DNA from: Escherichia phage vB_EcoM_TU01
Sequence record: MZ560701
Direction: 5' to 3' (one strand)
DNA length: 64,000 nt
Shown piece by piece: positions 3,062 through 52,700 of this stretch. The stretch's first letter is position 1. Every line of letters starts with the position of its first letter. Under the pieces are notes generated by a model that did no database searches, was not told where the DNA came from, and saw only the letters and a program-made list of their open reading frames with translations. Both the position numbers and the translations under genes were made by a program.

Positions 3062-3079
3062 GATAATAAAGGAGTTAAC

Positions 3080-4040: not shown

Positions 4041-4081
4041 CCGTACGGCCTTCTCTTGGTGAGAACATTCTAATTTTTATT

Positions 4082-4378
4082 ATGAGTATTGGCATGGGAT
4101 TTGCCTTTGGATTAGTTGGATTTCTTATTGACGGCGTTGTGTTAGGATTTATAGGGAACACTGGTGGATTCACAGACCAATGGCAGGACTTACGGTATAC
4201 CCAAGCCTTTGCATCCATCGCATCATTTTGTACTGTAGTCTATTTTTACTACGATTTTATAAACCATAACAAGAAAAATAAAAAGGTTTACGCTTCTCAA
4301 ATGATTAGTTATAATGAACTCCTAGCTAGACGTGAAAATGAAACAATCGAAAACTTTATTAAGGAATGTAGAAAATGA
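4082..4378 (+). CDS. hypothetical membrane protein (98 aa)
   Basis: Hydrophobic N-terminal half; ORF. Confidence 0.5.
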   Translation: MSIGMGFAFGLVGFLIDGVVLGFIGNTGGFTDQWQDLRYTQAFASIASFCTVVYFYYDFINHNKKNKKVYASQMISYNELLARRENETIENFIKECRK

Positions 4379-4680
4379 GTAAGATTATTGAAATTAAAGT
4401 ACCAGAGTTTAANGATGCCAAATCCGCTTCAGATGCAATTTATAAACTTCTGAATCAAGCTGAACGTATCGAAGAAGAAGCAACAAAGATCGCAGACCAA
4501 TATGCCGTATCATTTTCTGTAGGTGATTATGGTAGCGGTCGTACTTATTATCCTAAGGGTGAAATCGTATCCCAGTGGATGAAAAATGAAATTGAAAATA
4601 ATGGTGGCGATGTTAAGCGTGAAGGTAATGGTTACGTTATTACTGAAGGTGCTTGGGTTTCGTCTTCTGCGTTGTGCTAA
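4375..4680 (+). CDS. small protein, paralog family member 1 (C-terminal EGAWVSSSALC)
   Basis: Tandem ORF; conserved C-terminal tail shared with the next two ORFs. Confidence 0.55.
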   Translation: MSKIIEIKVPEFXDAKSASDAIYKLLNQAERIEEEATKIADQYAVSFSVGDYGSGRTYYPKGEIVSQWMKNEIENNGGDVKREGNGYVITEGAWVSSSALC

Positions 4681-4689
4681 GGAATCATT

Positions 4690-4962
4690 ATGTCTAAAGA
4701 ACAAACCGAACTGGCTGAAGCTGTAGCAAAAATCTATGCAGCTATTGAGGCTGCCAAAGAAATTGCTGATAAACAAAACACAACATTCGACTTGTATCCA
4801 GCTTATGGTATGGGTGGAACATATCATTCACCCGGACAGCTTAAAGCCGATCTTGAACGTTGTACAAAAAACGGCTATGCTGAATGGGCNGACGTTTACC
4901 AATACGACTACAACCTNAGCCTCGAAACNGGNGGTTGGATTGCATCTTCTCACACTTGCTAA
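4690..4962 (+). CDS. small protein, paralog family member 2 (C-terminal GGWIASSHTC)
   Basis: Tandem ORF, shared C-terminal motif. Confidence 0.55.
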   Translation: MSKEQTELAEAVAKIYAAIEAAKEIADKQNTTFDLYPAYGMGGTYHSPGQLKADLERCTKNGYAEWXDVYQYDYNXSLEXXGWIASSHTC

Positions 4963-4971
4963 GGAAACCAT

Positions 4972-5169
4972 ATGTCTCGTGAATTAGATTGTGCTGTACG
5001 TACGGCAGTAGCTGCTCTGGAAAACCTGTTCCAAATTGCAACAGAAGAACGCGAAGAAGTTACATTATGGATTGAAGATAACGCAGGNCTGAATCTCCAG
5101 AACGCAATCTCGTTATCAAATAATAGTATTACTGTTCAAGGCTGGGTATCNTCTAGTTATTCTTGCTAA
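4972..5169 (+). CDS. small protein, paralog family member 3 (C-terminal QGWVxSSYSC)
   Basis: Tandem ORF, shared C-terminal motif. Confidence 0.55.
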   Translation: MSRELDCAVRTAVAALENLFQIATEEREEVTLWIEDNAXLNLQNAISLSNNSITVQGWVXSSYSC

Positions 5170-5173
5170 AACA

Positions 5174-5203
5174 GTTTACAACAAGATAGGGCTATGTTAT
5201 AGT
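5174..5203 (+). promoter_or_regulatory. early promoter
   Basis: GTTTAC, 18 nt, TATAGT then AGnCCTATCAA. Confidence 0.5.
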
Positions 5204-5231
5204 AGNCCTATCAAATTAAATGGAGTCCACA

Positions 5232-5471
5232 ATGATTTATTANGAAAGTATTGGAACCNAAGTGGTTGCTAAAACCATTACTCGTGAAAAGTTTGCAAAG
5301 ATATTCGATATGCGTTATAAAAAATCTGAACACAAAGGCATCCGNTTCGAAGATGCACACTGNACAATTTGCCCTTATAATGAAGACATAAANGGTACAA
5401 TCGTTCCATTGGTAGAGGCTTCACACGATGACCTCTGGGATGAATATAATATCGCATGTCGTGAAATTTAA
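5232..5471 (+). CDS. hypothetical protein (79 aa)
   Basis: ATG 5232 after tggag RBS. Confidence 0.45.
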   Translation: MIYXESIGTXVVAKTITREKFAKIFDMRYKKSEHKGIXFEDAHXTICPYNEDIXGTIVPLVEASHDDLWDEYNIACREI

Positions 5472-5495
5472 GTTAATTAATCCGAGGAAAATATT

Positions 5496-6452
5496 ATGAT
5501 GTTAGTTATTGGTTCTCGTGCACTTCACTATCATGGCCTTATTGATTCTAACGCTATCAAAAATAGTGATTGGGACTTTATTGCGGACCAAGGTTCTTGG
5601 AATGCATTCAAAAATCAAATGATGGGTGTATATGTTCACCAAGATAACCCTGATGTCCAAGTTTTCAAATGCTTCCATAANGGACGCGAAACTCATTTTG
5701 AAGCATATATTGTTCCGGCAATCACTAATGTCCGTGAATTAGTAGGTGAACTCACTCCTGAAGATTTCACGTCTTCTTATGACCTTTTAAAATACGCCAA
5801 GAAAAATTTGACTAAAGACCGTTTGAACGGGTTTTACTGGGCAACTCCTGAGATATGTCTTGCAATTAAGATGTCTCATCGTTTCAAGAAAAATAATCCA
5901 TTCTTTTTAAAGACTATGAACCATATTCAGTATCTTCGTGGTAAAGGTGTTACACTGAACGATGAACTTACTGAAATTATGCTGAAACGCCAGAAAGAAA
6001 CCTTGAACTATGCTCACCCAGTTCTTGACACTTCTAAAAGTGCGTTCTTTAAAGATGANATCTATACATATGACCATGATACTATTCATGAAGCCATTGC
6101 ACTAACAGACCGTCCAGCGTATACATTTTATATGAAAGACGGTTCTGAAGTCATGACCTCACGCGAGAAGTTCGAATCGTTACCAGAAATGGTCAAATTG
6201 GCCGGTGTATATGAAGAATCATGTGTACTAGCATTAGAACGTTCTCAGATTCCTAATGACTTTAAAATTAACCCTGAAGCCAGTTTTATGATGGCATTAG
6301 AAAAAGTCTGCACAAGCATCACCTCNGGTTGGTTCCGTGAATACGCCTGGGAAAACTACAGCAAAGTAGTAAGTATGTACCAAAGCTTAGGACACGACGA
6401 TTACGTCAAACGTTTCAAACAAAATTTNCATATGGTAAAACCTTTCAAATAA
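5496..6452 (+). CDS. hypothetical protein (318 aa)
   Basis: Long ORF with gaggaaa RBS; no motif recognised. Confidence 0.6.
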   Translation: MMLVIGSRALHYHGLIDSNAIKNSDWDFIADQGSWNAFKNQMMGVYVHQDNPDVQVFKCFHXGRETHFEAYIVPAITNVRELVGELTPEDFTSSYDLLKYAKKNLTKDRLNGFYWATPEICLAIKMSHRFKKNNPFFLKTMNHIQYLRGKGVTLNDELTEIMLKRQKETLNYAHPVLDTSKSAFFKDXIYTYDHDTIHEAIALTDRPAYTFYMKDGSEVMTSREKFESLPEMVKLAGVYEESCVLALERSQIPNDFKINPEASFMMALEKVCTSITXGWFREYAWENYSKVVSMYQSLGHDDYVKRFKQNXHMVKPFK

Positions 6453-6464
6453 TTTCACAAAACT

Positions 6465-6494
6465 GTTTACAAGGTCTGTAGTTGTTGATACTAT
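6465..6494 (+). promoter_or_regulatory. early promoter
   Basis: GTTTAC, 18 nt, TACTAT then AGACCTATCAA. Confidence 0.55.
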
Positions 6495-6532
6495 AGACCT
6501 ATCAAAACAAATGAGTGAATGGAGATATAAAA

Positions 6533-6733
6533 ATGACTACTTTGAATAAACGTTTCGGTAAAGCTAAACCTGGTTGTGCAGCAGAACGTCGTTATGTTTT
6601 CGCTCAGTTAGAAGATGTAGAGTATCAGATTAATCAAGTTCACATTACTGGTATCGAGCCTATGTGTGGCCTTGAAGCTCTTCGTGAAGTTCGTGATGGG
6701 TATCGTCGTGACATCGAAGAAATGTCAAAATAA
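6533..6733 (+). CDS. hypothetical protein (66 aa)
   Basis: ATG 6533 after ggag RBS. Confidence 0.45.
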   Translation: MTTLNKRFGKAKPGCAAERRYVFAQLEDVEYQINQVHITGIEPMCGLEALREVRDGYRRDIEEMSK

Positions 6734-6763
6734 GTGTACAAACTNATAGGNCTATGTTATAGT
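6734..6763 (+). promoter_or_regulatory. early promoter
   Basis: GTGTAC, 18 nt, TATAGT then AGTCCTATnAA. Confidence 0.45.
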
Positions 6764-6789
6764 AGTCCTATNAACATGAGGAGAATATT

Positions 6790-7095
6790 ATGAAATTAAC
6801 AGAAACCAATCGAATCGGTCTTTTAACAATATTTGCATCACCTTTTTACGCAGCCCTTTCTGTTGCAGTATTACAAAAGGCTTACGATATGGATGGTGTT
6901 CCTGGTTTTGTATTCTTATCGCCGTTTTTGCTATTCGTCGGAGCATTGTTATTATATGCCACGACTAGTTTCGACCATAATGTCTGGGTCAATTATAAAT
7001 GTAAATTGTCTGAAGAAGAACACGCAGAAGCTCGTAAAAAAGCTATTGAATCTACCAATCTAGAAAATTTCATTAAAGAATGTCGAGGAAAATAA
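6790..7095 (+). CDS. hypothetical membrane protein (101 aa)
   Basis: Two hydrophobic segments; gaggag RBS. Confidence 0.5.
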   Translation: MKLTETNRIGLLTIFASPFYAALSVAVLQKAYDMDGVPGFVFLSPFLLFVGALLLYATTSFDHNVWVNYKCKLSEEEHAEARKKAIESTNLENFIKECRGK

Positions 7096-27753: not shown

Positions 27754-28227
27754 ATGTTATTATCAGGCAAATTATANAAAGAAGAAAAACAAAAATTTTA
27801 TGATGCACAGAACGGTAAGTGTCCTATTTGCCACCGTGAATTAGACCCTGATGTTCAAGGTAACCATCTTGACCACGACCACGAATTAAACGGGCCAAAA
27901 GCAGGTAGAGTTCGTGGGTTACTCTGTAATCTGTGCAACGCAGCAGAAGGTCAAATGAAGCATAAGTTCAACCGTTCCGGTCTTAAAGGACGTGATGTCG
28001 ACTACCTCGAATGGCTTGAAGCTCTTCTTGCTTATTTGAAACAAGATTATTCTGATAATAATATCCATCCTAATTTTGTTCCAGACAAAACTAAAGAGTT
28101 CTCAAGACTAGGTAAAGAGGAAATGATGGCTGAGATGCTTCAAAGAGGATTTGAATATAATGAATCTGATACCAAAACACAATTAATAGCTTCATTCAAA
28201 AAGCAGCTTAGAAAGAGTTTAAAATGA
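27754..28227 (+). CDS. 49: endonuclease VII (Holliday-junction resolvase)
   Basis: MLLSGKLxKEEKQKFYDAQNGKCPICHRELDPDVQGNHLDHDHELNG closely matches T4 gp49 (157 aa). Confidence 0.95.
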   Translation: MLLSGKLXKEEKQKFYDAQNGKCPICHRELDPDVQGNHLDHDHELNGPKAGRVRGLLCNLCNAAEGQMKHKFNRSGLKGRDVDYLEWLEALLAYLKQDYSDNNIHPNFVPDKTKEFSRLGKEEMMAEMLQRGFEYNESDTKTQLIASFKKQLRKSLK

Positions 28228-30041
28228 AAATTGAAAAAGAAATTGAAGGATTAATTCATAAAACTAATAAAGATCTTTTGAACGAGAATGCTAATAAAGA
28301 TTCTCGTGTTTTTCCAACTCAACGGGACCTTATGGCTGGTATTGTGTCTAAGCACATTGCCAAAAATATGGTCCCGTCTTTTATTATGAAAGCGCATGAA
28401 AGCGGAATTATCCATTTCCATGATATTGATTATTCCCCTGCTCTTCCGTTTACTAATTGCTGTTTAGTCGATTTAAAAGGNATGCTTGAGAACGGATTTA
28501 ANNTAGGCAATGCTCAAATTGAAACGCCTAAATCGATTGGTGTTGCTACTGCAATTATGGCACAAATTACCGCACAGGTTGCTTCACATCAGTACGGCGG
28601 AACGACTTTTGCTAATGTAGATAAAGTACTTTCTCCTTATGTTAAACGCACCTATGCAAAACATATTGAGGATGCAGAAAAATGGCAAATCGCTGATGCG
28701 TTGAATTATGCCCAATCTAAAACAGAAAAAGATGTATACGATGCATTCCAAGCTTATGAATATGAAGTAAATACTCTCTTTAGTTCAAACGGACAAACGC
28801 CTTTTGTAACAATTACATTTGGTACTGGAACTGACTGGACTGAACGAATGATTCAGAAAGCAATTCTGAAAAATCGTATTAAAGGTCTTGGTCGTGATGG
28901 GATAACTCCTATTTTCCCTAAACTTGTTATGTTCGTTGAAGAAGGTGTCAATCTTTATAAAGACGACCCGAACTACGATATTAAGCAGCTTGCTCTAGAG
29001 TGTGCAAGCAAAAGAATGTATCCTGATATTATTTCAGTTAAGAACAATAAAGCTATCACGGGTTCATCTATTCCTGTTTCTCCAATGGGTTGCCGTAGTT
29101 TCTTAAGTGTATGGAAAGATTCGACTGGTAATGAAATTCTTGATGGACGTAATAATCTTGGTGTTGTAACACTGAATCTTCCTCGTATTGCATTAGATTC
29201 TTATATTGGAACACAGTTCAATGAACAGAAATTTNTCGANNTNTTNAATGAACGAATGGATCTGTGTTTTGAAGCTTTGATGTGTAGAATTAGTTCTTTA
29301 AAGGGAGTTAAAGCAACTGTTGCTCCTATTCTTTACCAAGAAGGTGCATTCGGGGTTCGTCTTAAACCTGATGACGACATAATTGAGTTATTTAAAAACG
29401 GTAGAAGTTCAGTGTCTTTAGGATACATTGGTATTCACGAATTGAATATTCTTGTCGGACGTGATATTGGACAGGAAATTTTAACTAAAATGAATGCTCG
29501 TCTTAAGCAGTGGACTGAAAGAACTGGTTTTGCTTTTAGCTTGTATTCTACACCTGCTGAAAACCTNTGNTATCGCTTCTGTAAACTTGATACTGAGAAA
29601 TATGGAAGTGTAAANGATGTTACTGATAAAGGCTGGTACACTAACAGTTTCCACGTTTCAGTAGAAGAAAATATCACTCCGTTTGAAAAGATTTCTCGCG
29701 AAGCCCCATATCATTTCATTGCGACAGGCGGNCACATTTCTTATGTTGAACTTCCTGATATGAAAAATAACCTAAAAGGTCTTGAGGCTGTCTGGGATTA
29801 TGCTGCGCAACATTTAGATTATTTTGGTGTTAATATGCCAGTAGATAAATGTTTTACGTGTGGAAGTACCCATGAAATGACTCCTACTGAAAACGGATTT
29901 GTTTGTTCTATTTGTGGAGAAACTGATCCTAAAAAGATGAACACAATAAGAAGAACTTGTGGTTATNTTGGAAATCCGAACGAACGCGGATTTAATCTCG
30001 GCAAAAATAAAGAAATCATGCATAGGGTTAAACACCAATGA
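28224..30041 (+). CDS. nrdD: anaerobic ribonucleoside-triphosphate reductase
   Basis: 605 aa uninterrupted ORF; C-terminal glycyl-radical region RTCGYxG; matches T4 NrdD. Confidence 0.95.
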   Translation: MKIEKEIEGLIHKTNKDLLNENANKDSRVFPTQRDLMAGIVSKHIAKNMVPSFIMKAHESGIIHFHDIDYSPALPFTNCCLVDLKXMLENGFXXGNAQIETPKSIGVATAIMAQITAQVASHQYGGTTFANVDKVLSPYVKRTYAKHIEDAEKWQIADALNYAQSKTEKDVYDAFQAYEYEVNTLFSSNGQTPFVTITFGTGTDWTERMIQKAILKNRIKGLGRDGITPIFPKLVMFVEEGVNLYKDDPNYDIKQLALECASKRMYPDIISVKNNKAITGSSIPVSPMGCRSFLSVWKDSTGNEILDGRNNLGVVTLNLPRIALDSYIGTQFNEQKFXXXXNERMDLCFEALMCRISSLKGVKATVAPILYQEGAFGVRLKPDDDIIELFKNGRSSVSLGYIGIHELNILVGRDIGQEILTKMNARLKQWTERTGFAFSLYSTPAENXXYRFCKLDTEKYGSVXDVTDKGWYTNSFHVSVEENITPFEKISREAPYHFIATGXHISYVELPDMKNNLKGLEAVWDYAAQHLDYFGVNMPVDKCFTCGSTHEMTPTENGFVCSICGETDPKKMNTIRRTCGYXGNPNERGFNLGKNKEIMHRVKHQ

Positions 30042-30508
30042 ATTATGATAGATTTTATCCTTGTGATTTTGTGAATGGCCCTGGATGCAGGGTCGTTCTT
30101 TTCGTTACAGGTTGTTTGCATAAATGCGAAGGGTGTTATAATAAATCAACATGGAACGCTAGAAATGGTATTCCATTCACTGGTGAAACACTAGAGCAAT
30201 TAATTGAATGTTTGAATAATGATTATATAGAAGGATTAACTATAACTGGAGGAGACCCTCTCTATCCTGATAACCGAGATGTTGTTCATTGCATTGCTCA
30301 AACAGTAAAAAATCTTTATCCNAATAAAAGCATTTGGTTGTGGACAGGATATAAGTTTGAAGATATTAAACAACTAGAAATGCTTAAATATGTTGATGTT
30401 ATTATTGATGGGAAGTATGAGAAAAATCTTCCGACCAAAAAGCTGTGGCGAGGATCAGATAATCAGCGACTTTGGTCAAATACCGATGGGGTGTGGAAAC
30501 ATGATTAA
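30038..30508 (+). CDS. nrdG: anaerobic RNR activating enzyme (radical SAM)
   Basis: CLHKCEGCYNK CxxxCxxC motif; 156 aa as in T4. Confidence 0.9.
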   Translation: MNYDRFYPCDFVNGPGCRVVLFVTGCLHKCEGCYNKSTWNARNGIPFTGETLEQLIECLNNDYIEGLTITGGDPLYPDNRDVVHCIAQTVKNLYXNKSIWLWTGYKFEDIKQLEMLKYVDVIIDGKYEKNLPTKKLWRGSDNQRLWSNTDGVWKHD

Positions 30509-42126: not shown

Positions 42127-44838
42127 ATGAAAGAATTTTACTTAACGGTTGAACAGATTGGTGATTCAATTTTTGAACGTTACATCGATTCTAATGGCCG
42201 TGAACGTACTCGTGAAGTAGAATATAAACCATCACTGTTTGCTCATTGTCCAGAAAGTCAGGCTACGAAATATTTCGATATCTACGGTAAGCCGTGTACT
42301 CGTAAGTTGTTCGCTAATATGCGTGATGCCTCCCAATGGATTAAACGCATGGAAGATATCGGACTTGAAGCACTTGGCATGGACGATTTCAAATTGGCGT
42401 ATTTGTCTGACACTTATAACTATGAAATCAAATACGACCATACAAAAATTCGTGTGGCTAACTTCGACATCGAAGTAACATCTCCGGACGGGTTCCCTGA
42501 GCCGTCACAAGCAAAACATCCGATTGATGCTATCACCCATTATGACTCAATTGACGACAGGTTCTACGTATTTGATCTATTGAATTCTCCATATGGTAAT
42601 GTAGAAGAATGGTCTATCGAAATCGCTGCTAAGCTTCAAGAACAAGGCGGTGATGAAGTTCCATCCGAAATTATCGATAAAATCATTTATATGCCGTTCG
42701 ATAACGAAAAAGAATTGTTGATGGAATATCTCAACTTCTGGCAACAGAAAACTCCTGTCATTTTGACTGGATGGAACGTTGAGTCATTTGATATTCCATA
42801 TGTGTATAACCGAATCAAGAATATTTTTGGCGAATCTACTGCGAAACGTTTATCACCACATCGTAAAACTCGTGTTAAAGTTATCGAAAACATGTATGGT
42901 TCTCGTGAAATCATTACATTGTTCGGTATCTCTGTTCTTGATTACATTGACCTTTACAAAAAATTCTCTTTTACCAATCAACCGTCGTATTCTCTGGATT
43001 ACATTTCAGAATTTGAATTGAACGTTGGTAAACTGAAATATGACGGCCCTATTTCTAAGCTTCGTGAAAGCAATCACCAACGATACATTTCTTATAACAT
43101 TATCGACGTGTATCGTGTATTGCAAATTGATGGTAAACGTCAGTTCATTAACTTGAGCTTGGACATGGGTTATTATGCTAAGATACAGATTCAATCTGTG
43201 TTTAGCCCAATTAAAACATGGGATGCTATTATTTTTAATAGCCTTAAAGAGCAGAACAAGGTGATTCCACAAGGTCGTTCTCACCCGGTTCAACCTTATC
43301 CTGGCGCTTTTGTTAAGGAACCTATTCCAAATCGATACAAATATGTGATGAGCTTCGACCTCACATCTCTGTATCCAAGTATTATTCGCCAAGTGAATAT
43401 TAGCCCAGAAACAATAGCAGGAACGTTTAAAGTAGCTCCATTGCATGATTATATTAACGCTGTTGCTGAACGTCCTTCTGATGTGTACAGTTGTTCTCCT
43501 AACGGCATGATGTATTATAAAGACCGTGACGGTGTTGTTCCAACTGAAATCACTAAGGTCTTTAATCAACGTAAAGAACATAAAGGTTANATGCTTGCAG
43601 CTCAACGTAATGGTGAAATAATTAAAGAGGCATTGCATAATCCTAATCTTTCTGTTGACGAACCATTAGATGTTGATTATCGTTTCGACTTCAGTGATGA
43701 GATTAAAGAAAAGATTAAAAAGTTGTCTGCTAAATCTCTTAATGAAATGTTGTTTAGAGCTCAACGTACTGAAGTTGCAGGTATGACTGCACAGATTAAC
43801 CGTAAATTGCTTATCAACTCNCTTTATGGTGCACTTGGAAACGTNTGGTTCCGTTATTANGATTTGCGTAATGCTACTGCAATCACAACATTCGGGCAAA
43901 TGGCTTTACAGTGGATTGAACGTAAAGTTAATGAATATCTGAATGAAGTTTGTGGCACAGAAGGTGAAGCTTTCGTTCTTTATGGTGATACAGACTCTAT
44001 TTACGTATCTGCNGATAAAATTATCGATAAGGTTGGTGAATCTAAATTCCGTGATACCAACCATTGGGTAGACTTCTTAGATAAGTTTGCACGTGAACGT
44101 ATGGAACCAGCTATTGATAGAGGTTTCCGTGAAATGTGTGAATATATGAACAATAAACAACACTTAATGTTCATGGACCGAGAAGCTATCGCTGGTCCTC
44201 CGCTCGGTTCTAAAGGTATTGGTGGATTCTGGACTGGTAAGAAACGTTATGCATTAAACGTGTGGGATATGGAAGGTACTCGTTACGCTGAACCTAAGCT
44301 TAAAATCATGGGTCTCGAGACGCAGAAATCTTCGACTCCTAAAGCAGTACAGAAAGCTCTTAAAGAATGTATTCGTCGTATGCTTCAAGAAGGTGAAGAA
44401 TCATTACAAGAATATTTTAAAGAGTTTGAAAAAGAATTCCGTCAATTGAATTATATTAGCATCGCGTCGGTATCTTCTGCGAATAACATTGCTAAATATG
44501 ATGTAGGTGGATTCCCTGGTCCCAAATGTCCGTTCCATATTCGTGGAATTCTGACGTATAACCGGGCTATCAAAGGTAATATCGATGCACCGCAAGTTGT
44601 AGAAGGTGAAAAAGTATATGTTCTGCCTTTACGTGAAGGAAACCCATTCGGTGATAAATGTATCGCATGGCCTTCTGGTACTGAAATCACAGATTTAATT
44701 AAAGACGACGTACTTCATTGGATGGACTACACTGTTCTCCTTGAGAAGACATTTATTAAACCACTTGAAGGATTCACATCAGCAGCGAAACTCGATTACG
44801 AGAAGAAAGCATCTCTGTTCGATATGTTCGATTTTTGA
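42127..44838 (+). CDS. 43: DNA polymerase gp43 (family B)
   Basis: 903 aa; exonuclease and polymerase motifs (DIE, YGDTDS); sequence matches the RB69 gp43 I recall. Confidence 0.97.
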   Translation: MKEFYLTVEQIGDSIFERYIDSNGRERTREVEYKPSLFAHCPESQATKYFDIYGKPCTRKLFANMRDASQWIKRMEDIGLEALGMDDFKLAYLSDTYNYEIKYDHTKIRVANFDIEVTSPDGFPEPSQAKHPIDAITHYDSIDDRFYVFDLLNSPYGNVEEWSIEIAAKLQEQGGDEVPSEIIDKIIYMPFDNEKELLMEYLNFWQQKTPVILTGWNVESFDIPYVYNRIKNIFGESTAKRLSPHRKTRVKVIENMYGSREIITLFGISVLDYIDLYKKFSFTNQPSYSLDYISEFELNVGKLKYDGPISKLRESNHQRYISYNIIDVYRVLQIDGKRQFINLSLDMGYYAKIQIQSVFSPIKTWDAIIFNSLKEQNKVIPQGRSHPVQPYPGAFVKEPIPNRYKYVMSFDLTSLYPSIIRQVNISPETIAGTFKVAPLHDYINAVAERPSDVYSCSPNGMMYYKDRDGVVPTEITKVFNQRKEHKGXMLAAQRNGEIIKEALHNPNLSVDEPLDVDYRFDFSDEIKEKIKKLSAKSLNEMLFRAQRTEVAGMTAQINRKLLINXLYGALGNXWFRYXDLRNATAITTFGQMALQWIERKVNEYLNEVCGTEGEAFVLYGDTDSIYVSXDKIIDKVGESKFRDTNHWVDFLDKFARERMEPAIDRGFREMCEYMNNKQHLMFMDREAIAGPPLGSKGIGGFWTGKKRYALNVWDMEGTRYAEPKLKIMGLETQKSSTPKAVQKALKECIRRMLQEGEESLQEYFKEFEKEFRQLNYISIASVSSANNIAKYDVGGFPGPKCPFHIRGILTYNRAIKGNIDAPQVVEGEKVYVLPLREGNPFGDKCIAWPSGTEITDLIKDDVLHWMDYTVLLEKTFIKPLEGFTSAAKLDYEKKASLFDMFDF

Positions 44839-44878: not shown

Positions 44879-45514
44879 ATGAAAACTACTCCTATTACTA
44901 TCGCTATTGACGCAATCATAAAACAAGCTTCTTCTTTGGCCGCTATGGCCAAAGTAATTAGTCAAAACCCTGCTCGTTATAATGCTATTCTAGAAACTCT
45001 TCGACGCCCAGGACTTAGNAATTANGAAAGCCGAGTAATTATTACAGGTGTTGGTAAGAATGCTAATATTGCAACTAAAGCTTCTGAGACATTTGCTTCA
45101 CTCGGTATCCCGAGTATGTACTTGAACACCGGGCATTATTCTCACGGTGATGCAGGATTCATTGCGCCTAATGATGTGTTGATTCATATTAGTCGTTCTG
45201 GTAAAACTGAAGAAATGATAGGCGTTGCTAAGCATCTTAAAATGATTCGTCCGAACGTCAAACAGATTCTGTTGCATTGTAACCCAGACATTCCACAAGA
45301 AAATGAAGCCCTTTTTGATTACTCTTTCTGTACAGGCATCGCAGTAGAGGTTGATGAGAATTCTCTGGCTCCGACTATGTCCACTACATTGTTGTTAGCG
45401 CTTATCGATACTTTTGCTATCAACCTTTCGTCTGAGCGTGGATTTACCTCTAATGACTTCCTTAAGTTCCACCCTGGTGGTGCACTAGGTGCCATGTTAC
45501 GAGGCGAACAATGA
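44879..45514 (+). CDS. SIS-domain sugar-phosphate isomerase (arabinose-5-phosphate isomerase KdsD/GutQ-like, no CBS domains)
   Basis: ITGVGKN...HGDAG...SRSGKTEE...APTMSTT...FHPGGALG parallel the E. coli KdsD SIS domain. Confidence 0.8.
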   Translation: MKTTPITIAIDAIIKQASSLAAMAKVISQNPARYNAILETLRRPGLXNXESRVIITGVGKNANIATKASETFASLGIPSMYLNTGHYSHGDAGFIAPNDVLIHISRSGKTEEMIGVAKHLKMIRPNVKQILLHCNPDIPQENEALFDYSFCTGIAVEVDENSLAPTMSTTLLLALIDTFAINLSSERGFTSNDFLKFHPGGALGAMLRGEQ

Positions 45515-45695: not shown

Positions 45696-47381
45696 ATGAA
45701 AAAAGCTGTTATTCTTGGTGCTGGACTGGCAACTCGTTTGTATCCAATAACGCATCATATTCCTAAGGTGCTTGTTAACTATAAACAAGACACTATTCTG
45801 AGCAATTTGTATACAATTTATTCTGACCTTGGCGCAGATGAAATTATTGTAGTAGTTCATTCAAAATTTGCTGAAACTGTTCGAGCTTATTGTGAGCAAG
45901 AAGGGTTCAATGTGACTATTCGTACAGTTGATGAAGCGTATGGTTCTGCTTATGCTCTTGCTAAATTACACAAAGATTTAGACGGCCATAATGTAATTGT
46001 TAACTGGTGTGATATTATTCCTGATTTTGGTTCATGGTCTTGGAATGTTAACGCAATCTATGTTAAGGGTGATGAATGTCGATATAATTTCGACGGTGAA
46101 AATATCACTAACGTAGGTTCAACAGGTGGTAATGTTGTAGGAATTTATCAGTTCAAAGACTGGGAATTCTATATGGGTTCTACTGATGAGGAAATTCATG
46201 AATACTGCAAAGGACGTGATTTCGTAGAATTCCTTTACGGCAGCGCATTCAATAAATCAGAGCTTATGAATCTAATTGATTTAGGTGATATGCCTAAACT
46301 TGAAAAAGCTCATGAAGTTCGTGAACTTAATCGTAGTTTTAATGCAGTTGAAATTGGTGAAGAAACTGTAACTAAATTCGCATTAACCGAACAGGGTCGA
46401 GCTCTTCAGAAAGATGAGATTTCATGGTATCTTAAAGTGAAATCAGATTCAGTTCCTCAGTTAGTTTCTGTTAATGAAAATAACTTTGAAATGGAACGCA
46501 TTAAAGGTAAGCCGGCATTTGAATATATTAAATCCAAATCGAGTCTTGCTCGTCCACAAATTGTTGATGCAATTTTAGATGCACTGAAATTCAGCACAGA
46601 CACTTATTTTGTAAGTCCTGAAACTGTTCGTCGTGATTTCACTAAAGAATTCTATACGAAAGTTATTGATCGTTGTGAAAGTATTCAACCATTGATTGAT
46701 TCATTTGGTAAAATCACACATGTGAACTACACTAAGATTGGACGTCTGAAGCCAATGCTGAAACAAGCTTTAGAACACCTTATTCGTTATCATAACCGTT
46801 CTCAGGGACAGTACTCTGTTATTCATGGCGACCCGAACTTCAGTAATACTATGATTACTGATAACGGCGAAGTCAAGTTTATCGACCCTCGTGGATATTT
46901 TGGTGAAACCAAGATTTACGGGCCAAAATTGTACGATGAAGCTAAAGTGCTTTATGCTGTTTCAGGTTATGATGAATTCAACGCTAATCCGACCTGGGGA
47001 CAGTTTACTATTGACGAAACAACTTGTAATGTGACTATTAACATCAATCCATTAATTTACAAATATGGAAAGCTGAGTTCGTTTAACGAGTATCATCATT
47101 TGGCCGTAGCAATTATCTGGATTGCATTAGGTGGTTATTTCAAGAATAATCCACTTAAAGCGGTAGCCGCATATTATAAAGGTATGGAACTTCTGACTAA
47201 GCAATTACGTAACATGGGCCGTGTACTTCAAGACGGCTCTATTAGTTATGACGTAGCAGAACCTGTAACGGCTACTCTGATTACAAAAAATCCTGGTAAA
47301 TGGGTACTAACTGATAAAGAAACTGGTGTTTCCTATCGTCCAATCGGTGGCGATATCACTCATCAATGGGAACGAATCTAA
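45696..47381 (+). CDS. bifunctional sugar-1-phosphate nucleotidyltransferase / APH-ChoK-like kinase
   Basis: N-terminal ILGAGLATRL (GxGTRL sugar-NTase motif); C-terminal HGDPNFSN...KFIDP (kinase catalytic loop). Confidence 0.75.
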   Translation: MKKAVILGAGLATRLYPITHHIPKVLVNYKQDTILSNLYTIYSDLGADEIIVVVHSKFAETVRAYCEQEGFNVTIRTVDEAYGSAYALAKLHKDLDGHNVIVNWCDIIPDFGSWSWNVNAIYVKGDECRYNFDGENITNVGSTGGNVVGIYQFKDWEFYMGSTDEEIHEYCKGRDFVEFLYGSAFNKSELMNLIDLGDMPKLEKAHEVRELNRSFNAVEIGEETVTKFALTEQGRALQKDEISWYLKVKSDSVPQLVSVNENNFEMERIKGKPAFEYIKSKSSLARPQIVDAILDALKFSTDTYFVSPETVRRDFTKEFYTKVIDRCESIQPLIDSFGKITHVNYTKIGRLKPMLKQALEHLIRYHNRSQGQYSVIHGDPNFSNTMITDNGEVKFIDPRGYFGETKIYGPKLYDEAKVLYAVSGYDEFNANPTWGQFTIDETTCNVTININPLIYKYGKLSSFNEYHHLAVAIIWIALGGYFKNNPLKAVAAYYKGMELLTKQLRNMGRVLQDGSISYDVAEPVTATLITKNPGKWVLTDKETGVSYRPIGGDITHQWERI

Positions 47382-47767
47382 TGCACCGTGTAGAAAACAT
47401 GCTTAATCTTTGTTTTGATGTCGATGATTGTATAACAGAGTGGAATAACAATCGTGATTACGTGAACTTCAAGCCGGACGTCGAAATGGTGAATGCCATT
47501 AATGCCCTGTATGATGCAGGGCACACAATAACGCTTTACACTGCTCGCGGTATGAAGTCAGTAGGTCCTGGTCGTATAGCAATTGACATTCTCCCAAGTC
47601 TTATTCAGAACTTGGCAAACATTGGCTTGAAGTACCATAATTTGCTAACACATAAACCAGTATATGATTGGATTATCGACGACAAAGCTATGCGTCCTGA
47701 CGAATTCAAAGCTCTTATGAATAAAGGCGAATTCGAAACATTTAAATCATATAAACCGAATCTATAA
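47380..47767 (+). CDS. HAD-family phosphatase
   Basis: DxDx motif CFDVDDCIT near N-terminus; small KdsC-like size. Confidence 0.65.
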
Positions 47768-47821
47768 TAATTTAAGTAAGACCTGCAAAAACCATCGCAT
47801 CAATTAACGCGAGATGCAAAA

Positions 47822-48982
47822 ATGAATACTTTTAAAATCGGAACGAATTTTGATTTAGCTCTTCTTGATAAAATCGTAGAGCTCAATAAAACTTATCCTA
47901 ATAGCTTGATAAACGAAGTATATGGCTCTACAAGAGAAATGGCTTTTGTAGCAGCCAGACCTGATTTTAGGCTTCCTGACGTTGACAAAAAGATGTTAGA
48001 AGATTACGTTAAACGTTGTAACGAATTAGGTATTTGCTTTAACTATACACTCAACACGATAAATCCTGGTTCAAAAAGAGAACTAGTTGAGTGGAAGAAG
48101 AAAGCTATTCAGGACTATGTTCAGTATCTTTGGTCAATAGGCGTATGGCGTATTACTATCGCTAACCCTGTTGTTATGGAAATTGTTCGTGAAGTCAATA
48201 AAGACATTGAGATTGAAGTTTCAACAATTTTACATGTCGATGCTGTAACTCAAATCAAATACTTACATGACCAGTATAATATCAAAAAGGTCTGCTGTGG
48301 AATTCATAAGAACCGTTCAGTTTCTTTCCTGAAGCGTGCAGCAGAGTTTTGCAATAAGAACAATATAATATTTGAAGTTCTTGTAAATGAGTTCTGTTCT
48401 AATGCTGGTAAAGGGTATACAACACATTGTAGCTATCGTGACTCTTGCTATATTTTCCATAGTACTGATGTTACAGCTGATGATGCTAAATCCTTAAATG
48501 GATATCCTATGCAGCACTGTATTAAAGCTCGTGATACAGACCCATTTAACTGGTTGAGAACTCGTTTTGTTCGTCCACAAGATTTGAAACTTTATAATGA
48601 TATTGGTATCACTCAATTTAAAGTTTCGGGACGTACAGGTAGCACCGACTACATTTTGAAAGTTCTTGAAGCTTATGCTTCTGAAAAGTTTGAAGGTAAT
48701 TTGTTGGAATTGTGGAAGCCTTTAGAGACCATTTTCACTCTTGAAAATGAGACCGAGTTTTCACATACGGTAAATATTGAAACCTCTTTGTTAGACGGCT
48801 TTTTAGAAAAAAGGTGGTTCAGACATCCGGATTTCGATTGTGCTAATGAAATCTGCGGGACGACGTGTACATATTGTGAAAGATATTATAAACGTCAGTT
48901 ATCTAAAAATGGGTTATCAGAAAATTCTATATCTATTATTGATATAACTAACTCTGACGACGCTTTGAGGTACCCAGAATGA
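47822..48982 (+). CDS. Cys-rich enzyme of unknown function (386 aa)
   Basis: Long ORF; Cys clusters EFCSNAGKGYTTHCSYRDSC and CANEICGTTCTYC. Confidence 0.6.
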   Translation: MNTFKIGTNFDLALLDKIVELNKTYPNSLINEVYGSTREMAFVAARPDFRLPDVDKKMLEDYVKRCNELGICFNYTLNTINPGSKRELVEWKKKAIQDYVQYLWSIGVWRITIANPVVMEIVREVNKDIEIEVSTILHVDAVTQIKYLHDQYNIKKVCCGIHKNRSVSFLKRAAEFCNKNNIIFEVLVNEFCSNAGKGYTTHCSYRDSCYIFHSTDVTADDAKSLNGYPMQHCIKARDTDPFNWLRTRFVRPQDLKLYNDIGITQFKVSGRTGSTDYILKVLEAYASEKFEGNLLELWKPLETIFTLENETEFSHTVNIETSLLDGFLEKRWFRHPDFDCANEICGTTCTYCERYYKRQLSKNGLSENSISIIDITNSDDALRYPE

Positions 48983-49216
48983 TTTCTAGAAAAACTTTTA
49001 ACCACCAACTTAATGAAGAGATTTTGACTATAAAAATTAACAGCAACGAACAAATTCTTAAAAAGGCCCTTATGGGCCTGTTTGAAACTAAAGCGGCTAA
49101 AGCGATTAAAGAAACCTGTTCAACTAGAATACTATGCCGACGCATTCCTTCATAGTGTCCTTGGAAGTATTGATGCCGAAGCTCTACGTTATATCAACAT
49201 CGCTAAGAAATTCAAA

Positions 49217-49242
49217 TAAGCTTTATGAATTGAGTATATAAT
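49217..49242 (+). promoter_or_regulatory. middle-type promoter (GCTTTA, 11 nt, TATAAT)
   Basis: Upstream of gene 42. Confidence 0.45.
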
Positions 49243-49261: not shown

Positions 49262-49978
49262 ATGGGAAAACATAACACAATGAAATATATTAAAGCCGCA
49301 GATTTTCAATCCGCATTTAAAGCTGTCAATCGTGAAATTTTAGAAAACCCAGAATTCGTAACTGATTCTCGTATTGGACGTTGTAATGAAATTGGGTCTA
49401 TGACAGTAGTTGTTGACACTCCATCATCATTCAAAATGACCGACCCACGTATTAACCGCATCTCTTATGAATATGCCGAAGATTTCTGGAAATTTATGAT
49501 TTCTGGCGGNACTGANGCAGAAGAAGCATTTAAGGCATATCCTAATGTCGCTAAATTTATTTCTAAACCAAAATCAGACGCTTTGCCTGCGAACTTCAAC
49601 ACTTTCTATGGTCCTCGCATTGCGGCCCAATTACCAGCTCTTCTAAAAGAACTTAAAGAGAAGCCTAACTCTCGAAGAGTTGTGTTCCAAATTCTTGAAA
49701 GTTCTGATCAGGCTTTGCTTGATTCGGACGAAACGCTTGAATATCCATGTACTGACTCAGTGACTTATTATATTCGTGATGGTAAGCTTTATACCCACTG
49801 TCATATGCGTTCCCAGAACTGTGCTGTTGTTATGCAGTTGGATTTTTATCTCCAAGGAAAATTACTTCATTATATCGCTAAAGAATGCGGTGTAGAAGTT
49901 GGTGATTATACTCATACCATGGTAAGTGCCCATGTGTTTGAACGTGATTTTGATTATGTTAAAGGATTCCTTGACTAA
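49262..49978 (+). CDS. 42: dCMP hydroxymethylase (thymidylate-synthase fold)
   Basis: Syntenic with T4 gene 42; candidate nucleophile in EYPCTDSVTYY; diverged from T4. Confidence 0.75.
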   Translation: MGKHNTMKYIKAADFQSAFKAVNREILENPEFVTDSRIGRCNEIGSMTVVVDTPSSFKMTDPRINRISYEYAEDFWKFMISGXTXAEEAFKAYPNVAKFISKPKSDALPANFNTFYGPRIAAQLPALLKELKEKPNSRRVVFQILESSDQALLDSDETLEYPCTDSVTYYIRDGKLYTHCHMRSQNCAVVMQLDFYLQGKLLHYIAKECGVEVGDYTHTMVSAHVFERDFDYVKGFLD

Positions 49979-50877
49979 TGGCTATTTTCCGCGTACCTAT
50001 CTTGAGTATGCGGTCTTATGAAACCGGACAGTATGCTATCCTTAAGGATGGCAACTTCCAACTTCATTTGCACCGTGCTAATCCGGGTGATGTGATTACA
50101 TATCCACGTAATGCATCTGATATTAAAGAATGTGAACGTCTTTTCCCAGAATTTAAGTTTGTTCCATTATGGTATAAAGATAACGCGTATAACACTCGTA
50201 AATATTTCTGGTCTGAAAATGAATTTGTGGTTGATTCATTAATTGCTTATTATGATTGTGATTTTCTAATCACAGATATCACTGGATATGACGGAGCTTT
50301 TGATGTAGAATTCAATTTCAATATCACTGCAGACCCTAATAAACCACGTTTTTATATTGACGAATTCTTAAAAACCGACATGTTGTCGGTTAATCGTTCA
50401 CTTCAAACTACTGTGTTGAATGAACGTCAAAAAGAAGTGCTGGTTAACGCTGGTGCAGATGGTAATAAGATTATCGTAACCCAGAAAGTTATACGTCCTT
50501 CCATCATGCAGCGTCTTGTAGGTGATTTGGCTCCTATTCATCTAGATGGTATTTTTCATCCATTTCGAATTAGTGACCCGTGCTATCGTTTTGAACAAGT
50601 GGTTGAATGTGCAATTCAATTAGGTCAACCGCTTTATGTAACCGATCCAAATAATAGTTTCGATAGAAATAAGTATCCTGAAGAAGCGCTGATTCGAATT
50701 TTTAAACCAACTAAAACTGAGTACTATCAAATTCTTAAAGGACGGCCGAAGATTCAATATTTCGAAAATCCTGAAGAAGTATTCCATCCAGGTCTTGGCG
50801 AGTTCATCTACTTTAATGCTTTAATTTCTTCACCGTATAATATACCTAAATACGAAGATGTCGTAATCGAGGAATAA
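49978..50877 (+). CDS. hypothetical protein at the beta-glucosyltransferase position (candidate DNA sugar transferase)
   Basis: 299 aa ORF directly after gene 42; no similarity to T4 beta-gt recognised. Confidence 0.5.
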   Translation: MAIFRVPILSMRSYETGQYAILKDGNFQLHLHRANPGDVITYPRNASDIKECERLFPEFKFVPLWYKDNAYNTRKYFWSENEFVVDSLIAYYDCDFLITDITGYDGAFDVEFNFNITADPNKPRFYIDEFLKTDMLSVNRSLQTTVLNERQKEVLVNAGADGNKIIVTQKVIRPSIMQRLVGDLAPIHLDGIFHPFRISDPCYRFEQVVECAIQLGQPLYVTDPNNSFDRNKYPEEALIRIFKPTKTEYYQILKGRPKIQYFENPEEVFHPGLGEFIYFNALISSPYNIPKYEDVVIEE

Positions 50878-50878
50878 A

Positions 50879-51427
50879 ATGGCTAAAATTATTTTAGTAG
50901 ATGGCCCGGATAATGCTGGTAAAACAACTTTCATTAATGATATAATGGAAATTAGTGAAAGATATGTAAAGATTGATTTCCCTAAACGAACAGTTGATGG
51001 ACGTTTCGATGTTAAGTCTCGAAATGAAGTTGGCTGTTTCGAAACGATGTTGAATTATTTAGACCCTACTAAGATTTATCTGTTAGACCGTGGATATATT
51101 AGTAACTGGGTTTATGGACGTATTCGACAAGATGCGGACTCGGTTCTTGACGTTTATGAACAGGATTATGTTCGTCTTTGCCAAAACCATGATGTGTTCA
51201 CAATTATTTTAACACGTAACGAAATGACTGAAAGTTTTGAAGACGACCTTATTACTTTGTCTTCATTCGGTTTTAATACAGTCATTTCACATTTTGAAGA
51301 GTTTGCAATTCATAACAAAATCCAAACGTATCAATTACTTAATCATGATGGTGCTAACAAAGTTATAGGATTTAATGCAAGCGAACGTAATTATTTGATT
51401 ACAGAAATTATCAAATGGGCTCGTTAA
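50879..51427 (+). CDS. P-loop kinase-like protein
   Basis: Walker A GPDNAGKTT at N-terminus; 182 aa. Confidence 0.55.
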   Translation: MAKIILVDGPDNAGKTTFINDIMEISERYVKIDFPKRTVDGRFDVKSRNEVGCFETMLNYLDPTKIYLLDRGYISNWVYGRIRQDADSVLDVYEQDYVRLCQNHDVFTIILTRNEMTESFEDDLITLSSFGFNTVISHFEEFAIHNKIQTYQLLNHDGANKVIGFNASERNYLITEIIKWAR

Positions 51428-51527: not shown

Positions 51528-52700
51528 ATGTCTGATTTAAAATCTCGTCTGATTAAAGCTTCTACTTCTAAAATGACTGCAGACTTGACTAAGTCTAAGC
51601 TGTTTAATAATCGTGATGAAGTCCCTACTCGTATTCCGATGTTGAATATTGCATTAGGTGGTGCACTGAATGCCGGGTTGCAATCAGGCTTAACTATTTT
51701 TGCTGCTCCTTCTAAACACTTTAAAACGTTGTTTGGACTGACCATGGTTGCAGCATATATGAAGAAATATAAAGATGCAATTTGTTTGTTCTATGATTCA
51801 GAATTTGGTGCTTCAGAATCTTATTTTCGTTCAATGGGTGTTGATTTAGACCGTGTAGTTCATACTCCGATTCAATCTGTCGAACAACTTAAAGTTGATA
51901 TGACTAATCAGCTTGACGCGATTGAACGTGGTGATAAAGTTATTATCTTTATCGATTCAATCGGTAATACTGCATCTAAGAAAGAAACTGAAGATGCGTT
52001 GAACGAGAAAGTTGTAGGTGATATGTCTCGTGCTAAGGCACTTAAATCTCTGTTCCGCATTGTGACTCCTTATCTGACTATTAAAGATATTCCATGTGTT
52101 GCAATCAACCATACAGCAATGGAAATCGGCGGACTATATCCTAAAGAGATTATGGGCGGTGGTACAGGTATTCTTTACTCTGCTAACACTGTATTCTTTA
52201 TCTCTAAACGTCAGGTTAAAGAAGGTACAGAATTGACCGGNTANGANTTCACGTTGAAAGCAGAAAAATCTCGTACAGTTAAAGAGAAATCTACTTTCCC
52301 GATCACGGTTAATTTTGATGGCGGTATTGACCCATTCAGTGGCTTGTTAGAAATGGCAACTGAAATTGGTTTTGTAGTTAAGCCTAAAGCCGGTTGGTAC
52401 GCTCGCGAATTCCTTGACGAAGAAACAGGCGAAATGATTCGTGAAGAAAAATCATGGCGTGCTAAAGCTACTGATTGTGTAGAATTCTGGGGACCATTGT
52501 TTAAACACAAACCTTTCCGAGATGCAATTGAAACTAAATATAAACTAGGTGCTATCTCTTCTATTAAAGAAGTTGATGACGCTGTTAATGACCTTATTAA
52601 TTGCAAAGCAACAACTAAAGTTCCGGTTAAAACTTCTGATGCTCCGTCTGCAGCAGATATAGAAAACGACCTTGACGAAATGGAAGATTTCGATGAATAA
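51528..52700 (+). CDS. uvsX: UvsX recombinase (RecA-like)
   Basis: 390 aa; matches T4 UvsX. Confidence 0.95.
   Translation: MSDLKSRLIKASTSKMTADLTKSKLFNNRDEVPTRIPMLNIALGGALNAGLQSGLTIFAAPSKHFKTLFGLTMVAAYMKKYKDAICLFYDSEFGASESYFRSMGVDLDRVVHTPIQSVEQLKVDMTNQLDAIERGDKVIIFIDSIGNTASKKETEDALNEKVVGDMSRAKALKSLFRIVTPYLTIKDIPCVAINHTAMEIGGLYPKEIMGGGTGILYSANTVFFISKRQVKEGTELTXXXFTLKAEKSRTVKEKSTFPITVNFDGGIDPFSGLLEMATEIGFVVKPKAGWYAREFLDEETGEMIREEKSWRAKATDCVEFWGPLFKHKPFRDAIETKYKLGAISSIKEVDDAVNDLINCKATTKVPVKTSDAPSAADIENDLDEMEDFDE

Follow-up and report, generated by a model that had tools for sequence, protein, structure and literature searches.

A phage member of the Peptidase_U32 family as a candidate oxygen-independent, prephenate-dependent pyrimidine C5 hydroxylase in the DNA-modification cassette of RB69-like phages

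Members of the Peptidase_U32 (U32) family that contain iron-sulphur (Fe-S) clusters are needed for hydroxylation reactions that proceed without O2 and depend on prephenate (PMC5727448; PMC6599085; PMC10990095): for UbiU/UbiV, prephenate was identified as the oxygen donor by 18O labelling, and prephenate is likewise required by TrhP and RlhA (PMC10990095). The DNA of phage RB69 was first reported to contain arabinosyl-hydroxymethylcytosine (PMC6024577), and Lee et al. (Nucleic Acids Research, 2026) have since shown that the sugar is attached via 5-hydroxycytosine (5hoC): gp48 was shown experimentally to be a flavin-binding 5-hydroxy-dCMP (5hodCMP) synthase that takes its oxygen from 18O2, and the SIS-domain protein, gp52:53 and gp51 make UDP-arabinofuranose (PMC13326640). 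In the present work we analysed a stretch of 64,000 nucleotides from Escherichia phage vB_EcoM_TU01 (record MZ560701; hereafter the window) and within it the gene at 47822–48982, which encodes a U32 protein homologous to RB69 gp50 and stands close to the gp48 homologue. We propose, with a probability of roughly 60%, that this protein is an O2-independent, prephenate-dependent pyrimidine C5 hydroxylase and the anaerobic counterpart of the O2-dependent 5hodCMP synthase.

The gene is an open reading frame (ORF) from ATG to TAA that encodes 386 residues, and its opposite strand is riddled with stop codons. The protein contains 13 Cys residues (3.4%, against 1.4% for the ORFs of the window). A first-pass annotation, made from the DNA letters, had drawn attention to this Cys-rich ORF, and its coordinates, length and quoted peptide strings all match the translation; it had also regarded the function as unknown. 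The family can be named: Pfam Peptidase_U32 (PF01136) matches residues 94–286 with 42.2 bits against a cut-off of 22.4 (E 7e-11), a match already listed in 2006 (PMC1524935), PHROG 5757 matches over the full length, and PF01136 is present in 117 of the 120 relatives listed. Profile comparison by hhalign with an alignment of 46 sequences returned RlhA at 97.6% (E 3.8e-12 over 203 columns), TrhP at 96.4% and UbiU at 92.5%. The AlphaFold2 model (predicted local distance difference test 89.7, predicted template modelling score 0.89) displays the alternating strands and helices of a beta/alpha barrel; the Foldseek search with this model, a test that the first-pass annotation had itself called for, gave the U32 protein Mk0906 (PDB ID: 5d88; E 2e-7) as best solved match. 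The same entry was the sole match when the Protein Data Bank (PDB) was searched with a profile (1.4e-8), and the single protein sequence returned no match from the PDB. When compared with the NCBIfam equivalog models, the protein matched UbiU only, at 18.5 bits against a cut-off of 440, which does not indicate orthology to any characterised subfamily; identity to the four E. coli U32 proteins is 18–19%. These matches place the phage protein in the Peptidase_U32 family as a homologue of RlhA, TrhP and UbiU and, because the UbiU score lies far under its cut-off and the identity to the E. coli proteins is this low, in a separate subfamily, for which 719 cluster representatives were found at E<=1e-10. 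The first-pass annotation was prepared to abandon its view upon a match to a family without any link to sugar or nucleotide chemistry; the family found instead includes RlhA and TrhP, which are needed for pyrimidine C5 hydroxylation (ho5C and ho5U, respectively).

Eight of the Cys residues fall into two groups, a central one (site A: C192-x10-C203-x5-C209-x23-C233), previously given as C-x11-C-x5-C, and a C-terminal one (site B: C340-x4-C345-x3-C349-x2-C352), exactly as first described. Across 46 relatives with 25–47% identity to the window protein and a mean column identity of 29%, C192, C203, C233 and C352 are kept in every sequence and C340, C345 and C349 in 44–45 (C340 in 45), with position 209 occupied by Cys in 34, His in 11 and Asp in one; C66, C72, C159 and C177 are unconserved and C158 is partially kept (32/46). 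The pattern exceeds chance, the eight ligand positions being kept down to 25% identity. Within site A, C203 and C209 fall on Cys1 and Cys2 of the canonical motif in both RlhA and UbiU, the U32 signature of RlhA (HGALCVAYSGQCYISH) being aligned with YTTHCS-YRDSCYIFH of the phage protein; C233, located in C-I-K-A-R (C-x-x-A-R), aligns with UbiU C193 in C-S-P-A-R, and C192 sits in a 10-residue insertion. The four-Cys pattern of the U32 oxidases is present here as a variant, C192-x10-C203-x5-[C/H/D]209-x23-C233. The motifs described for the family are CX6CX15CX3/4C, with CX6CX16CX38C in UbiU and CXnCX12CX3C in UbiV, and the corresponding Cys residues of UbiU/UbiV bind a [4Fe-4S] cluster and are essential (PMC6747719). 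Site A is predicted from the alignment to be homologous to the catalytic-domain [4Fe-4S] cluster of the U32 hydroxylases, and the initial suggestion of a metal- or Fe-S-dependent enzyme is very likely correct, given that conserved Cys residues overlie the proven [4Fe-4S] ligands of these proteins.

Site B is peculiar to this subfamily and has no counterpart in the alignment with TrhP, UbiU and UbiV. Its last three Cys residues (C345-GTT-C349-TY-C352) form a CX3CX2C motif with Tyr351 before the last Cys, which is the canonical radical S-adenosylmethionine (SAM) spacing and corrects the earlier statement that neither cluster fits it; among the relatives the residue before C352 is mostly Tyr but variable. 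The motif occupies residues 340–352, C-terminal to the barrel rather than on the first barrel strand, and the protein has no Pfam match other than U32, Radical_SAM included. Since all four Cys residues are conserved and a Radical_SAM signature is lacking, we infer that site B is a closed auxiliary cluster or a Zn site and not a SAM-binding cluster.

Chorismate mutase makes prephenate, and a gene for this enzyme is found beside the U32 gene in many T4-like phages. In Enterobacter phage Entb_45, the stop codon of the U32 gene overlaps the start of a gene for a 79-residue protein that matches CM_2 at 40.9 bits against a cut-off of 27, together with many NCBIfam chorismate mutase models, and a profile of the phage proteins matches 1ybz in the PDB at 3e-16. 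R8, R25, K36, S71 and Q75 are invariant among the phage sequences, and we take them to correspond to R11, R28, K39, S84 and Q88 of the E. coli enzyme EcCM; judged by these matches, the Entb_45 protein is a type II (AroQ) chorismate mutase with its catalytic residues kept. Homologues were found in 51 T4-like records, and in every row inspected the gene is flanked by those for the U32 protein and the synthase. The hosts are Klebsiella, Serratia, Yersinia, Enterobacter, Edwardsiella, Erwinia, Pectobacterium, Shewanella, Providencia, Morganella and Kosakonia, to which Escherichia phage EcS1 is to be added. This linkage would lend indirect support to prephenate as the oxygen donor of the U32 protein. 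A search of the whole window turned up no chorismate mutase, and in this Mosigvirus the prephenate would have to come from the host.

Outside this linkage, the distribution of the U32 gene was compared with that of the gp48-type synthase. The U32 gene is present in 221 phage records, all from T4-like phages whose hosts are Enterobacterales or Shewanella, with no match under 80% identity among phage records; the synthase is present in 345, including 57 Acinetobacter phages at 66–71% identity. In Acinetobacter phage DLP3, which was checked directly, the HAD gene directly abuts the synthase gene and the U32 gene is absent, and the DNA of this phage was experimentally shown to contain tri-arabinosyl-5hoC (PMC13326640). 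E. coli Dhakavirus WG01 also lacks the U32 cassette. A gene of the core pathway would be expected in every phage with the modification, which is not what we observe: because DLP3 and WG01 do without it, the U32 cassette is an accessory insertion between the HAD and synthase genes and not a core gene of arabinosyl-5hoC formation. The same absences speak against the role in sugar-precursor synthesis or transfer suggested at first, and the specific partner that recurs beside the gene is instead chorismate mutase.

Relatives with ~50% identity are encoded on metagenomic viral contigs and on 12 contigs of genomes or metagenome-assembled genomes, assigned to Erysipelotrichales, Oscillospiraceae, Romboutsia, Clostridium, Gastranaerophilaceae, Tannerella, Phocaeicola, Woesearchaeota, BRC1 and Planctomycetota, lineages that we take to be anaerobic or from anoxic habitats. 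We selected 47 such non-T4 loci for their U32 gene and clustered the neighbours encoded within flanks of +/-8–10 kb. A gp46:47-like glycosyltransferase was found at 25 of the 47 loci, in most cases as the gene immediately preceding that for the U32 protein, followed in frequency by AfhE-like nucleotidyltransferase/kinase (15), HAD-like (13), SIS (12) and thymidylate-kinase-like (10) genes, DNA polymerase III alpha (9), dCMP deaminase and dUTPase (7 each) and MazG-like genes (6). At five loci there is a fusion of 3-deoxy-D-arabino-heptulosonate 7-phosphate (DAHP) synthase with CM_2 (PF00793 7e-26, PF01817 6.7e-18) and at four a standalone chorismate mutase, which in L057 is directly 3' of the U32 gene; in L009 a TET-associated DNA glycosyltransferase and a UDP-galactopyranose mutase adjoin the U32 gene. 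The link to chorismate mutase thus recurs independently outside the T4-like phages. Searching all 47 loci with a hidden Markov model of the 5hodCMP-synthase/thymidylate-synthase family gave one weak match within these flanks. Acinetobacter is a strictly aerobic host, and a phyletic pattern thus emerges in which phages of aerobes encode the O2-dependent enzyme only, phages of facultative anaerobes often encode both, and anaerobe-associated phages encode the U32 protein only, which mirrors the pairs TrhO/TrhP and UbiIHF/UbiUV.

Several further observations concern the fusions and their loci. The DAHP-synthase/chorismate-mutase fusions lie just upstream of the U32 gene in L053, L054 (6321–7376), L055, L051 and L017, and among cultured phages their chorismate mutase part matched only T4-like phages with a U32 gene. 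The one full-length exception, a record filed as 'Bacteriophage sp.' from human faeces (MT837090.1; L072), was considered as a fusion-bearing phage without U32 and rejected as a bacterial chromosomal fragment: its positions 1–7000 encode the DAHP-synthase/chorismate-mutase fusion, prephenate dehydrogenase, DXS, TrkA and TrkH. The fusion on this Bacteroidota-like fragment is 42% identical, which suggests gene capture from such hosts. In L006 (7135–17428) and L015, a Bacillota-type contig encodes two U32 paralogues that are ~22% identical to each other, accompanied by a radical-SAM/SPASM protein, a deoxynucleoside kinase, an NT5C nucleotidase, a nicotinamide mononucleotide transporter, an AlaX-like protein, a nucleoside 2-deoxyribosyltransferase and methyltransferases; together they may represent a nucleoside- or DNA-modification cluster of a cell or a prophage.

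The window encodes the anaerobic ribonucleotide reductase NrdD and its activase NrdG (Table 1), which show that the phage is equipped for replication without O2; as the known synthase takes its oxygen from O2, an O2-independent route to 5hodCMP would be needed in such a phage. We propose that in anoxic host cells the U32 enzyme would convert dCMP to 5hodCMP, with another cytosine nucleotide or cytosine in DNA being less likely substrates. The barrel would bind dCMP and prephenate, the ring would be oxidised by two electrons, and decarboxylation of prephenate would deliver hydroxide to C5, according to the scheme proposed for UbiU/UbiV (PMC10990095). Site A would hold the [4Fe-4S] cluster of the catalytic triose-phosphate isomerase (TIM) barrel, and the electrons from the ring would pass from this cluster to the cluster (or Zn) of site B and then to an acceptor. 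In air, the flavin enzyme homologous to gp48 would make the same 5hodCMP from O2, with the product in turn used by the deoxynucleoside monophosphate kinase, the DNA polymerase and the arabinosyltransferases. Prephenate would be drawn from host PheA/TyrA in Mosigvirus, whereas a chorismate mutase is encoded by other T4-like genera themselves and DAHP-synthase/chorismate-mutase fusions by phages of anaerobes. The demand can be estimated: a genome of 167.6 kb with 37% GC corresponds to ~62,000 hydroxylations, and with an assumed burst of 100–200 we infer ~10^7 prephenate molecules per infected cell, which would explain why phages carry chorismate mutase and DAHP synthase genes. The more specific picture, namely a single-chain, two-cluster phage U32 protein that hydroxylates free dCMP with prephenate and without O2, in many phages with chorismate mutase or DAHP-synthase/chorismate-mutase genes of their own for supply, is put forward tentatively, at a little under even odds. 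In the accessible full-text literature we found no paper linking U32 proteins or chorismate mutase to phage 5hoC, although the idea may stand in less accessible papers.

Turning to the setting of the gene (Table 1), the region is 97.8–98.4% identical to RB69-like Mosigvirus genomes, and the gene order is that of RB69: DNA polymerase, SIS isomerase, nucleotidyltransferase/kinase, HAD phosphatase and U32 protein, followed by the ORF049c-like gene, thymidylate-synthase homologue, glycosyltransferase, kinase and UvsX. The U32 protein very likely belongs to the DNA-modification module. The first-pass annotation had placed the gene between the HAD phosphatase and 'gene 42', which stands for the HAD side, but on the other side the ORF049c-like gene intervenes; moreover, its 'gene 42' is the homologue of RB69 gp48 (98.3% identical to ORF048c), a 5hodCMP synthase and not a hydroxymethylase, and its premise of hydroxymethylcytosine DNA gives way to arabinosyl-5hoC in RB69-type phages (PMC13326640). 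The nucleotidyltransferase/kinase (561 residues) and the arabinosyltransferase (299 residues) are each a single ORF in the window, in agreement with the published statements that the splits 052c/053c and 046c/047c in RB69 are sequencing errors. NrdD (605 residues) carries the glycyl-radical motif RRTCGY and NrdG (156 residues) has 7 Cys. For the Shewanella phage Thanatos, the homologue TH1_065 was left unassigned by the authors, who state that they cannot offer a hypothesis on where the hydroxyl group comes from.

Table 1. Positions of the U32 gene, its predicted metal sites and related genes in the window.
Feature	Position	Strand	Basis
U32-family protein, predicted Fe-S, 386 aa; homologue of RB69 ORF050c/gp50 (RB69p050)	47822..48982	+	ORF; Pfam PF01136; PHROG 5757; hhalign; AlphaFold2 model
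Site A, codons C192/C203/C209/C233; predicted [4Fe-4S]	48395..48520	+	Conservation; alignment to U32 hydroxylases
Site B, codons C340/C345/C349/C352 (C-x4-C-G-x2-C-x-Y-C); predicted auxiliary [4Fe-4S] or Zn	48839..48877	+	Conservation
ORF049c-like small gene, frameshifted	48979..49219	+	Overlaps U32 stop (ATGA)
nrdD and nrdG, anaerobic ribonucleotide reductase and activase	28224..30508	+	PF13597 3e-165, Gly_radical; Fer4_12, Radical_SAM
SIS-domain arabinose-5-phosphate isomerase; RB69 gp55 homologue	44879..45514	+	Domain matches; PMC13326640
Bifunctional sugar-1-phosphate nucleotidyltransferase/kinase; RB69 gp52:53, AfhE-like	45696..47381	+	Domain matches; PMC13326640; PMC6024577
HAD-type sugar phosphatase; RB69 gp51, AfhF-like	47366..47767	+	NCBIfam TIGR01689; PHROG 1238; PMC13326640
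Thymidylate-synthase homologue; RB69 gp48 homologue, flavin/O2-dependent 5hodCMP synthase	49262..49978	+	Pfam Thymidylat_synt; PMC13326640
DNA arabinosyltransferase 1; RB69 gp46:47 homologue, single ORF	49978..50877	+	PMC13326640 Table 1
Thymidylate-kinase-like nucleotide kinase; RB69 gp45 homologue	50879..51427	+	PMC13326640 Table 1

The ORF049c-like gene, which encodes a protein of 79 residues, stands where other T4-like genera have chorismate mutase; 162 phage records contain such a gene, which adjoins the U32 gene in all rows inspected. That ORF049c could be a diverged chorismate mutase was considered and rejected, as it showed no Pfam or NCBIfam match, no BLASTP similarity and an hhalign value of 24%, and as both genes are present in tandem in Yersinia phages. 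In EcS1 and in phages of the CHI14 type (L036, L037), the chorismate mutase that follows the U32 gene has an N-terminal extension of ~35 residues, and its start, MRRINH.MNE, resembles the N-terminus of the ORF049c-like proteins, as if two small genes had been fused. In the window, the ORF049c-like gene is split by a 1-nucleotide insertion in an A-run near 49113 (AAAGAAACC compared with AAAG-AACC in RB69). A similar two-piece match is seen in the independent records JS09, SSE1, 348Ecol098PP and 172859UKE1, and for PNJ-6 the match is partial; either a shared variant or a homopolymer error that recurs may account for the split. The window holds 270 scattered N bases, which yield X residues in the DNA polymerase (42127–44838), the synthase homologue (49262–49978) and UvsX (51528–52700), and in quality the assembly is a consensus or low-coverage one. 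Ahead of the U32 gene we noted a short inverted repeat (TCGCATCAATTAACGCGA) at 47795–47812, 10–27 nucleotides 5' of the start codon and beside a weak GAG Shine-Dalgarno sequence, and a promoter-like TTTAAA-16-TATAAT at 47741–47768; promoter-like matches around the gene are not above the shuffled expectation, and the inverted repeat is likewise at chance level.

A number of points weigh against the proposed hydroxylase. For U32 enzymes in general, hydroxylation has yet to be demonstrated in vitro (PMC10990095). For the phage protein, family membership, ligand conservation, gene linkage and phyletic pattern are results of the present analysis, and the Fe-S content, use of prephenate, substrate and anaerobic role are deduced from sequence, model and genomic context. 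The canonical CX6CX15CX3/4C motif is kept only in part. The window phage and all RB69-like phages are without the chorismate mutase whose linkage we invoke, and some enteric 5hoC phages, such as WG01, manage without the U32 gene, which is therefore not indispensable. With regard to the phyletic pattern, the absence from Acinetobacter phages may represent one or a few evolutionary events, and at the non-T4 loci, which were selected by U32, an enzyme of the thymidylate-synthase type could lie beyond the flanks of +/-8–10 kb. Finally, Lee et al. labelled the RB69 protein a 'sugar or heterocycle reductase': RB69p050 appears in that work only in Table 1, with 5d88 as Foldseek match and with neither experiment nor discussion, and the two tRNA hydroxylation pathways cited in the Discussion are not tied to gp50 (PMC13326640).

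If this label is taken at face value, the protein would be a reductase or would provide another Fe-S-dependent step in the synthesis or transfer of the arabinose donor. The position within an arabinosylation cluster, with the HAD phosphatase to one side and the glycosyltransferase to the other, would suit such an enzyme, as would the SIS and AfhE-like sugar-activation genes shared by the non-T4 loci. We nevertheless consider this improbable: DLP3 makes tri-arabinosyl-5hoC without a U32 gene and WG01 is also without one, the route to UDP-arabinose is already complete with SIS, AfhE and AfhF, sugars are not among the known substrates of any U32 member, and the linkage to chorismate mutase has no place in a sugar route. 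Least probable of all, and bordering on the negligible, is that the protein acts as a radical-SAM-like enzyme through its C-terminal CX3CX2C motif or as a genuine collagenase-type peptidase. Although the spacing with Tyr351 fits the former, the missing Radical_SAM match, the C-terminal location of the motif and the fourth conserved Cys (C340), which suggests a fully ligated site, point the other way, and the names 'peptidase', 'collagenase' and 'protease' in database records stem from family transfer only, most U32 families having since been proposed to be Fe-S proteins.

Two further alternatives retain prephenate-dependent hydroxylation and alter the substrate. Hydroxylation of polymer DNA after replication, or of dUMP or dCTP in place of dCMP, is unlikely in our view, even though polymers are the substrates of its closest characterised relatives, RlhA and TrhP, and the dCMP deaminase and dUTPase genes of the non-T4 loci fit uracil chemistry: the phage protein lacks the C-terminal extensions of both enzymes, the neighbourhoods are dominated by nucleotide kinases and nucleotidases, and T4-type phages remove dCTP, so that little cytosine is expected in their DNA (dCTPase RB69p028, PMC13326640). 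An RNA hydroxylase like TrhP or RlhA, acting on tRNA or rRNA of host or phage and tuning translation without any relation to DNA modification, would be consistent with the homology, and the prephenate dependence of RlhA and TrhP would in this case explain the chorismate mutase linkage equally. We regard this as highly unlikely, given that the host already has both enzymes, that the phage protein is without the extra domains of the RNA enzymes, and that its gene sits in the DNA-hypermodification modules of unrelated phage groups, beside DNA glycosyltransferases.

Should the proposed O2-independent C5 hydroxylase prove correct, it would explain how RB69-type phages could replace all cytosine with 5-hydroxycytosine in the anoxic gut in spite of a synthase that needs O2, and how the same replacement could be achieved in phages of strict anaerobes without a thymidylate-synthase-type synthase. 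Prephenate-dependent hydroxylation would gain a DNA-precursor branch, and phage shikimate-pathway genes (chorismate mutase, DAHP synthase) would have a rationale. The more specific picture, with free dCMP as substrate, would represent the first viral use of chemistry with an organic oxygen donor, provide the first case of a U32 enzyme acting on a small soluble molecule, and be the sole route to glycosylated 5-hydroxypyrimidine DNA in phages of strict anaerobes. As a monomeric enzyme with a soluble nucleotide, it could also be a tractable U32 system in vitro. Phage fitness and sensitivity to modification-dependent defences would then depend on oxygen, which bears on the use of Mosigvirus and Kanagawavirus in phage therapy.

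Comparison with known systems reveals both common features and clear differences. Mk0906 (PDB ID: 5d88) is the one U32 protein with a solved structure and, of all solved structures, matches best in both fold and sequence, but it has no assigned function, shares ~11% identity, and matches in the barrel core only, with a TM score of 0.45 normalised to the query. The anaerobic ubiquinone hydroxylases UbiU-UbiV have a spectroscopically proven [4Fe-4S] cluster on Cys residues equivalent to C203, C209 and C233, and their functional unit contains two clusters, as may be the case in the phage protein; they differ in being a heterodimer with one cluster per protein and a lipid substrate, whereas the phage protein has two predicted sites in one chain. 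RlhA (YdcP), which is required for ho5C2501 in E. coli 23S rRNA, is the best profile match and shares the U32 TIM barrel and the aligned C-x-C-Y-x-x-H signature, and its product is a 5-hydroxycytosine ring made without O2 in a prephenate-dependent manner (PMC5727448; PMC10990095), which is what we propose for the phage protein. In contrast to the latter, RlhA (~19% identity) comprises 653 residues with large extra domains and has one rRNA residue as target; its CX6CX15CX3C motif is replaced in the phage protein by C-x10-C-x5-C-x23-C, a four-Cys module is added at the C-terminus, and the phage gene resides in a DNA-modification operon. The flavin-dependent 5hodCMP synthases RB69 gp48, DLP3 gp80 and HY126 share the pathway and the proposed product, and in the cassette their gene is two downstream of that for the U32 protein, but fold and cofactor are unrelated and the oxygen comes from O2; this synthase type is present in all arabinosyl-5hoC T4-like phages, those of Acinetobacter included. 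The relationship between the two phage enzymes may be best understood through tRNA ho5U34, for which the O2-independent, prephenate-dependent U32 protein TrhP (YegQ) is paired with TrhO, an unrelated O2-dependent enzyme that makes the same product (PMC6599085). TrhP aligns by hhalign only with the N-terminal half of the phage barrel, the substrate is a tRNA, and TrhO is of the rhodanese type, whilst gp48 is a flavin-dependent thymidylate-synthase homologue; in spite of these differences, the logic of the TrhP/TrhO pair is the one that we propose for gp50 and gp48.

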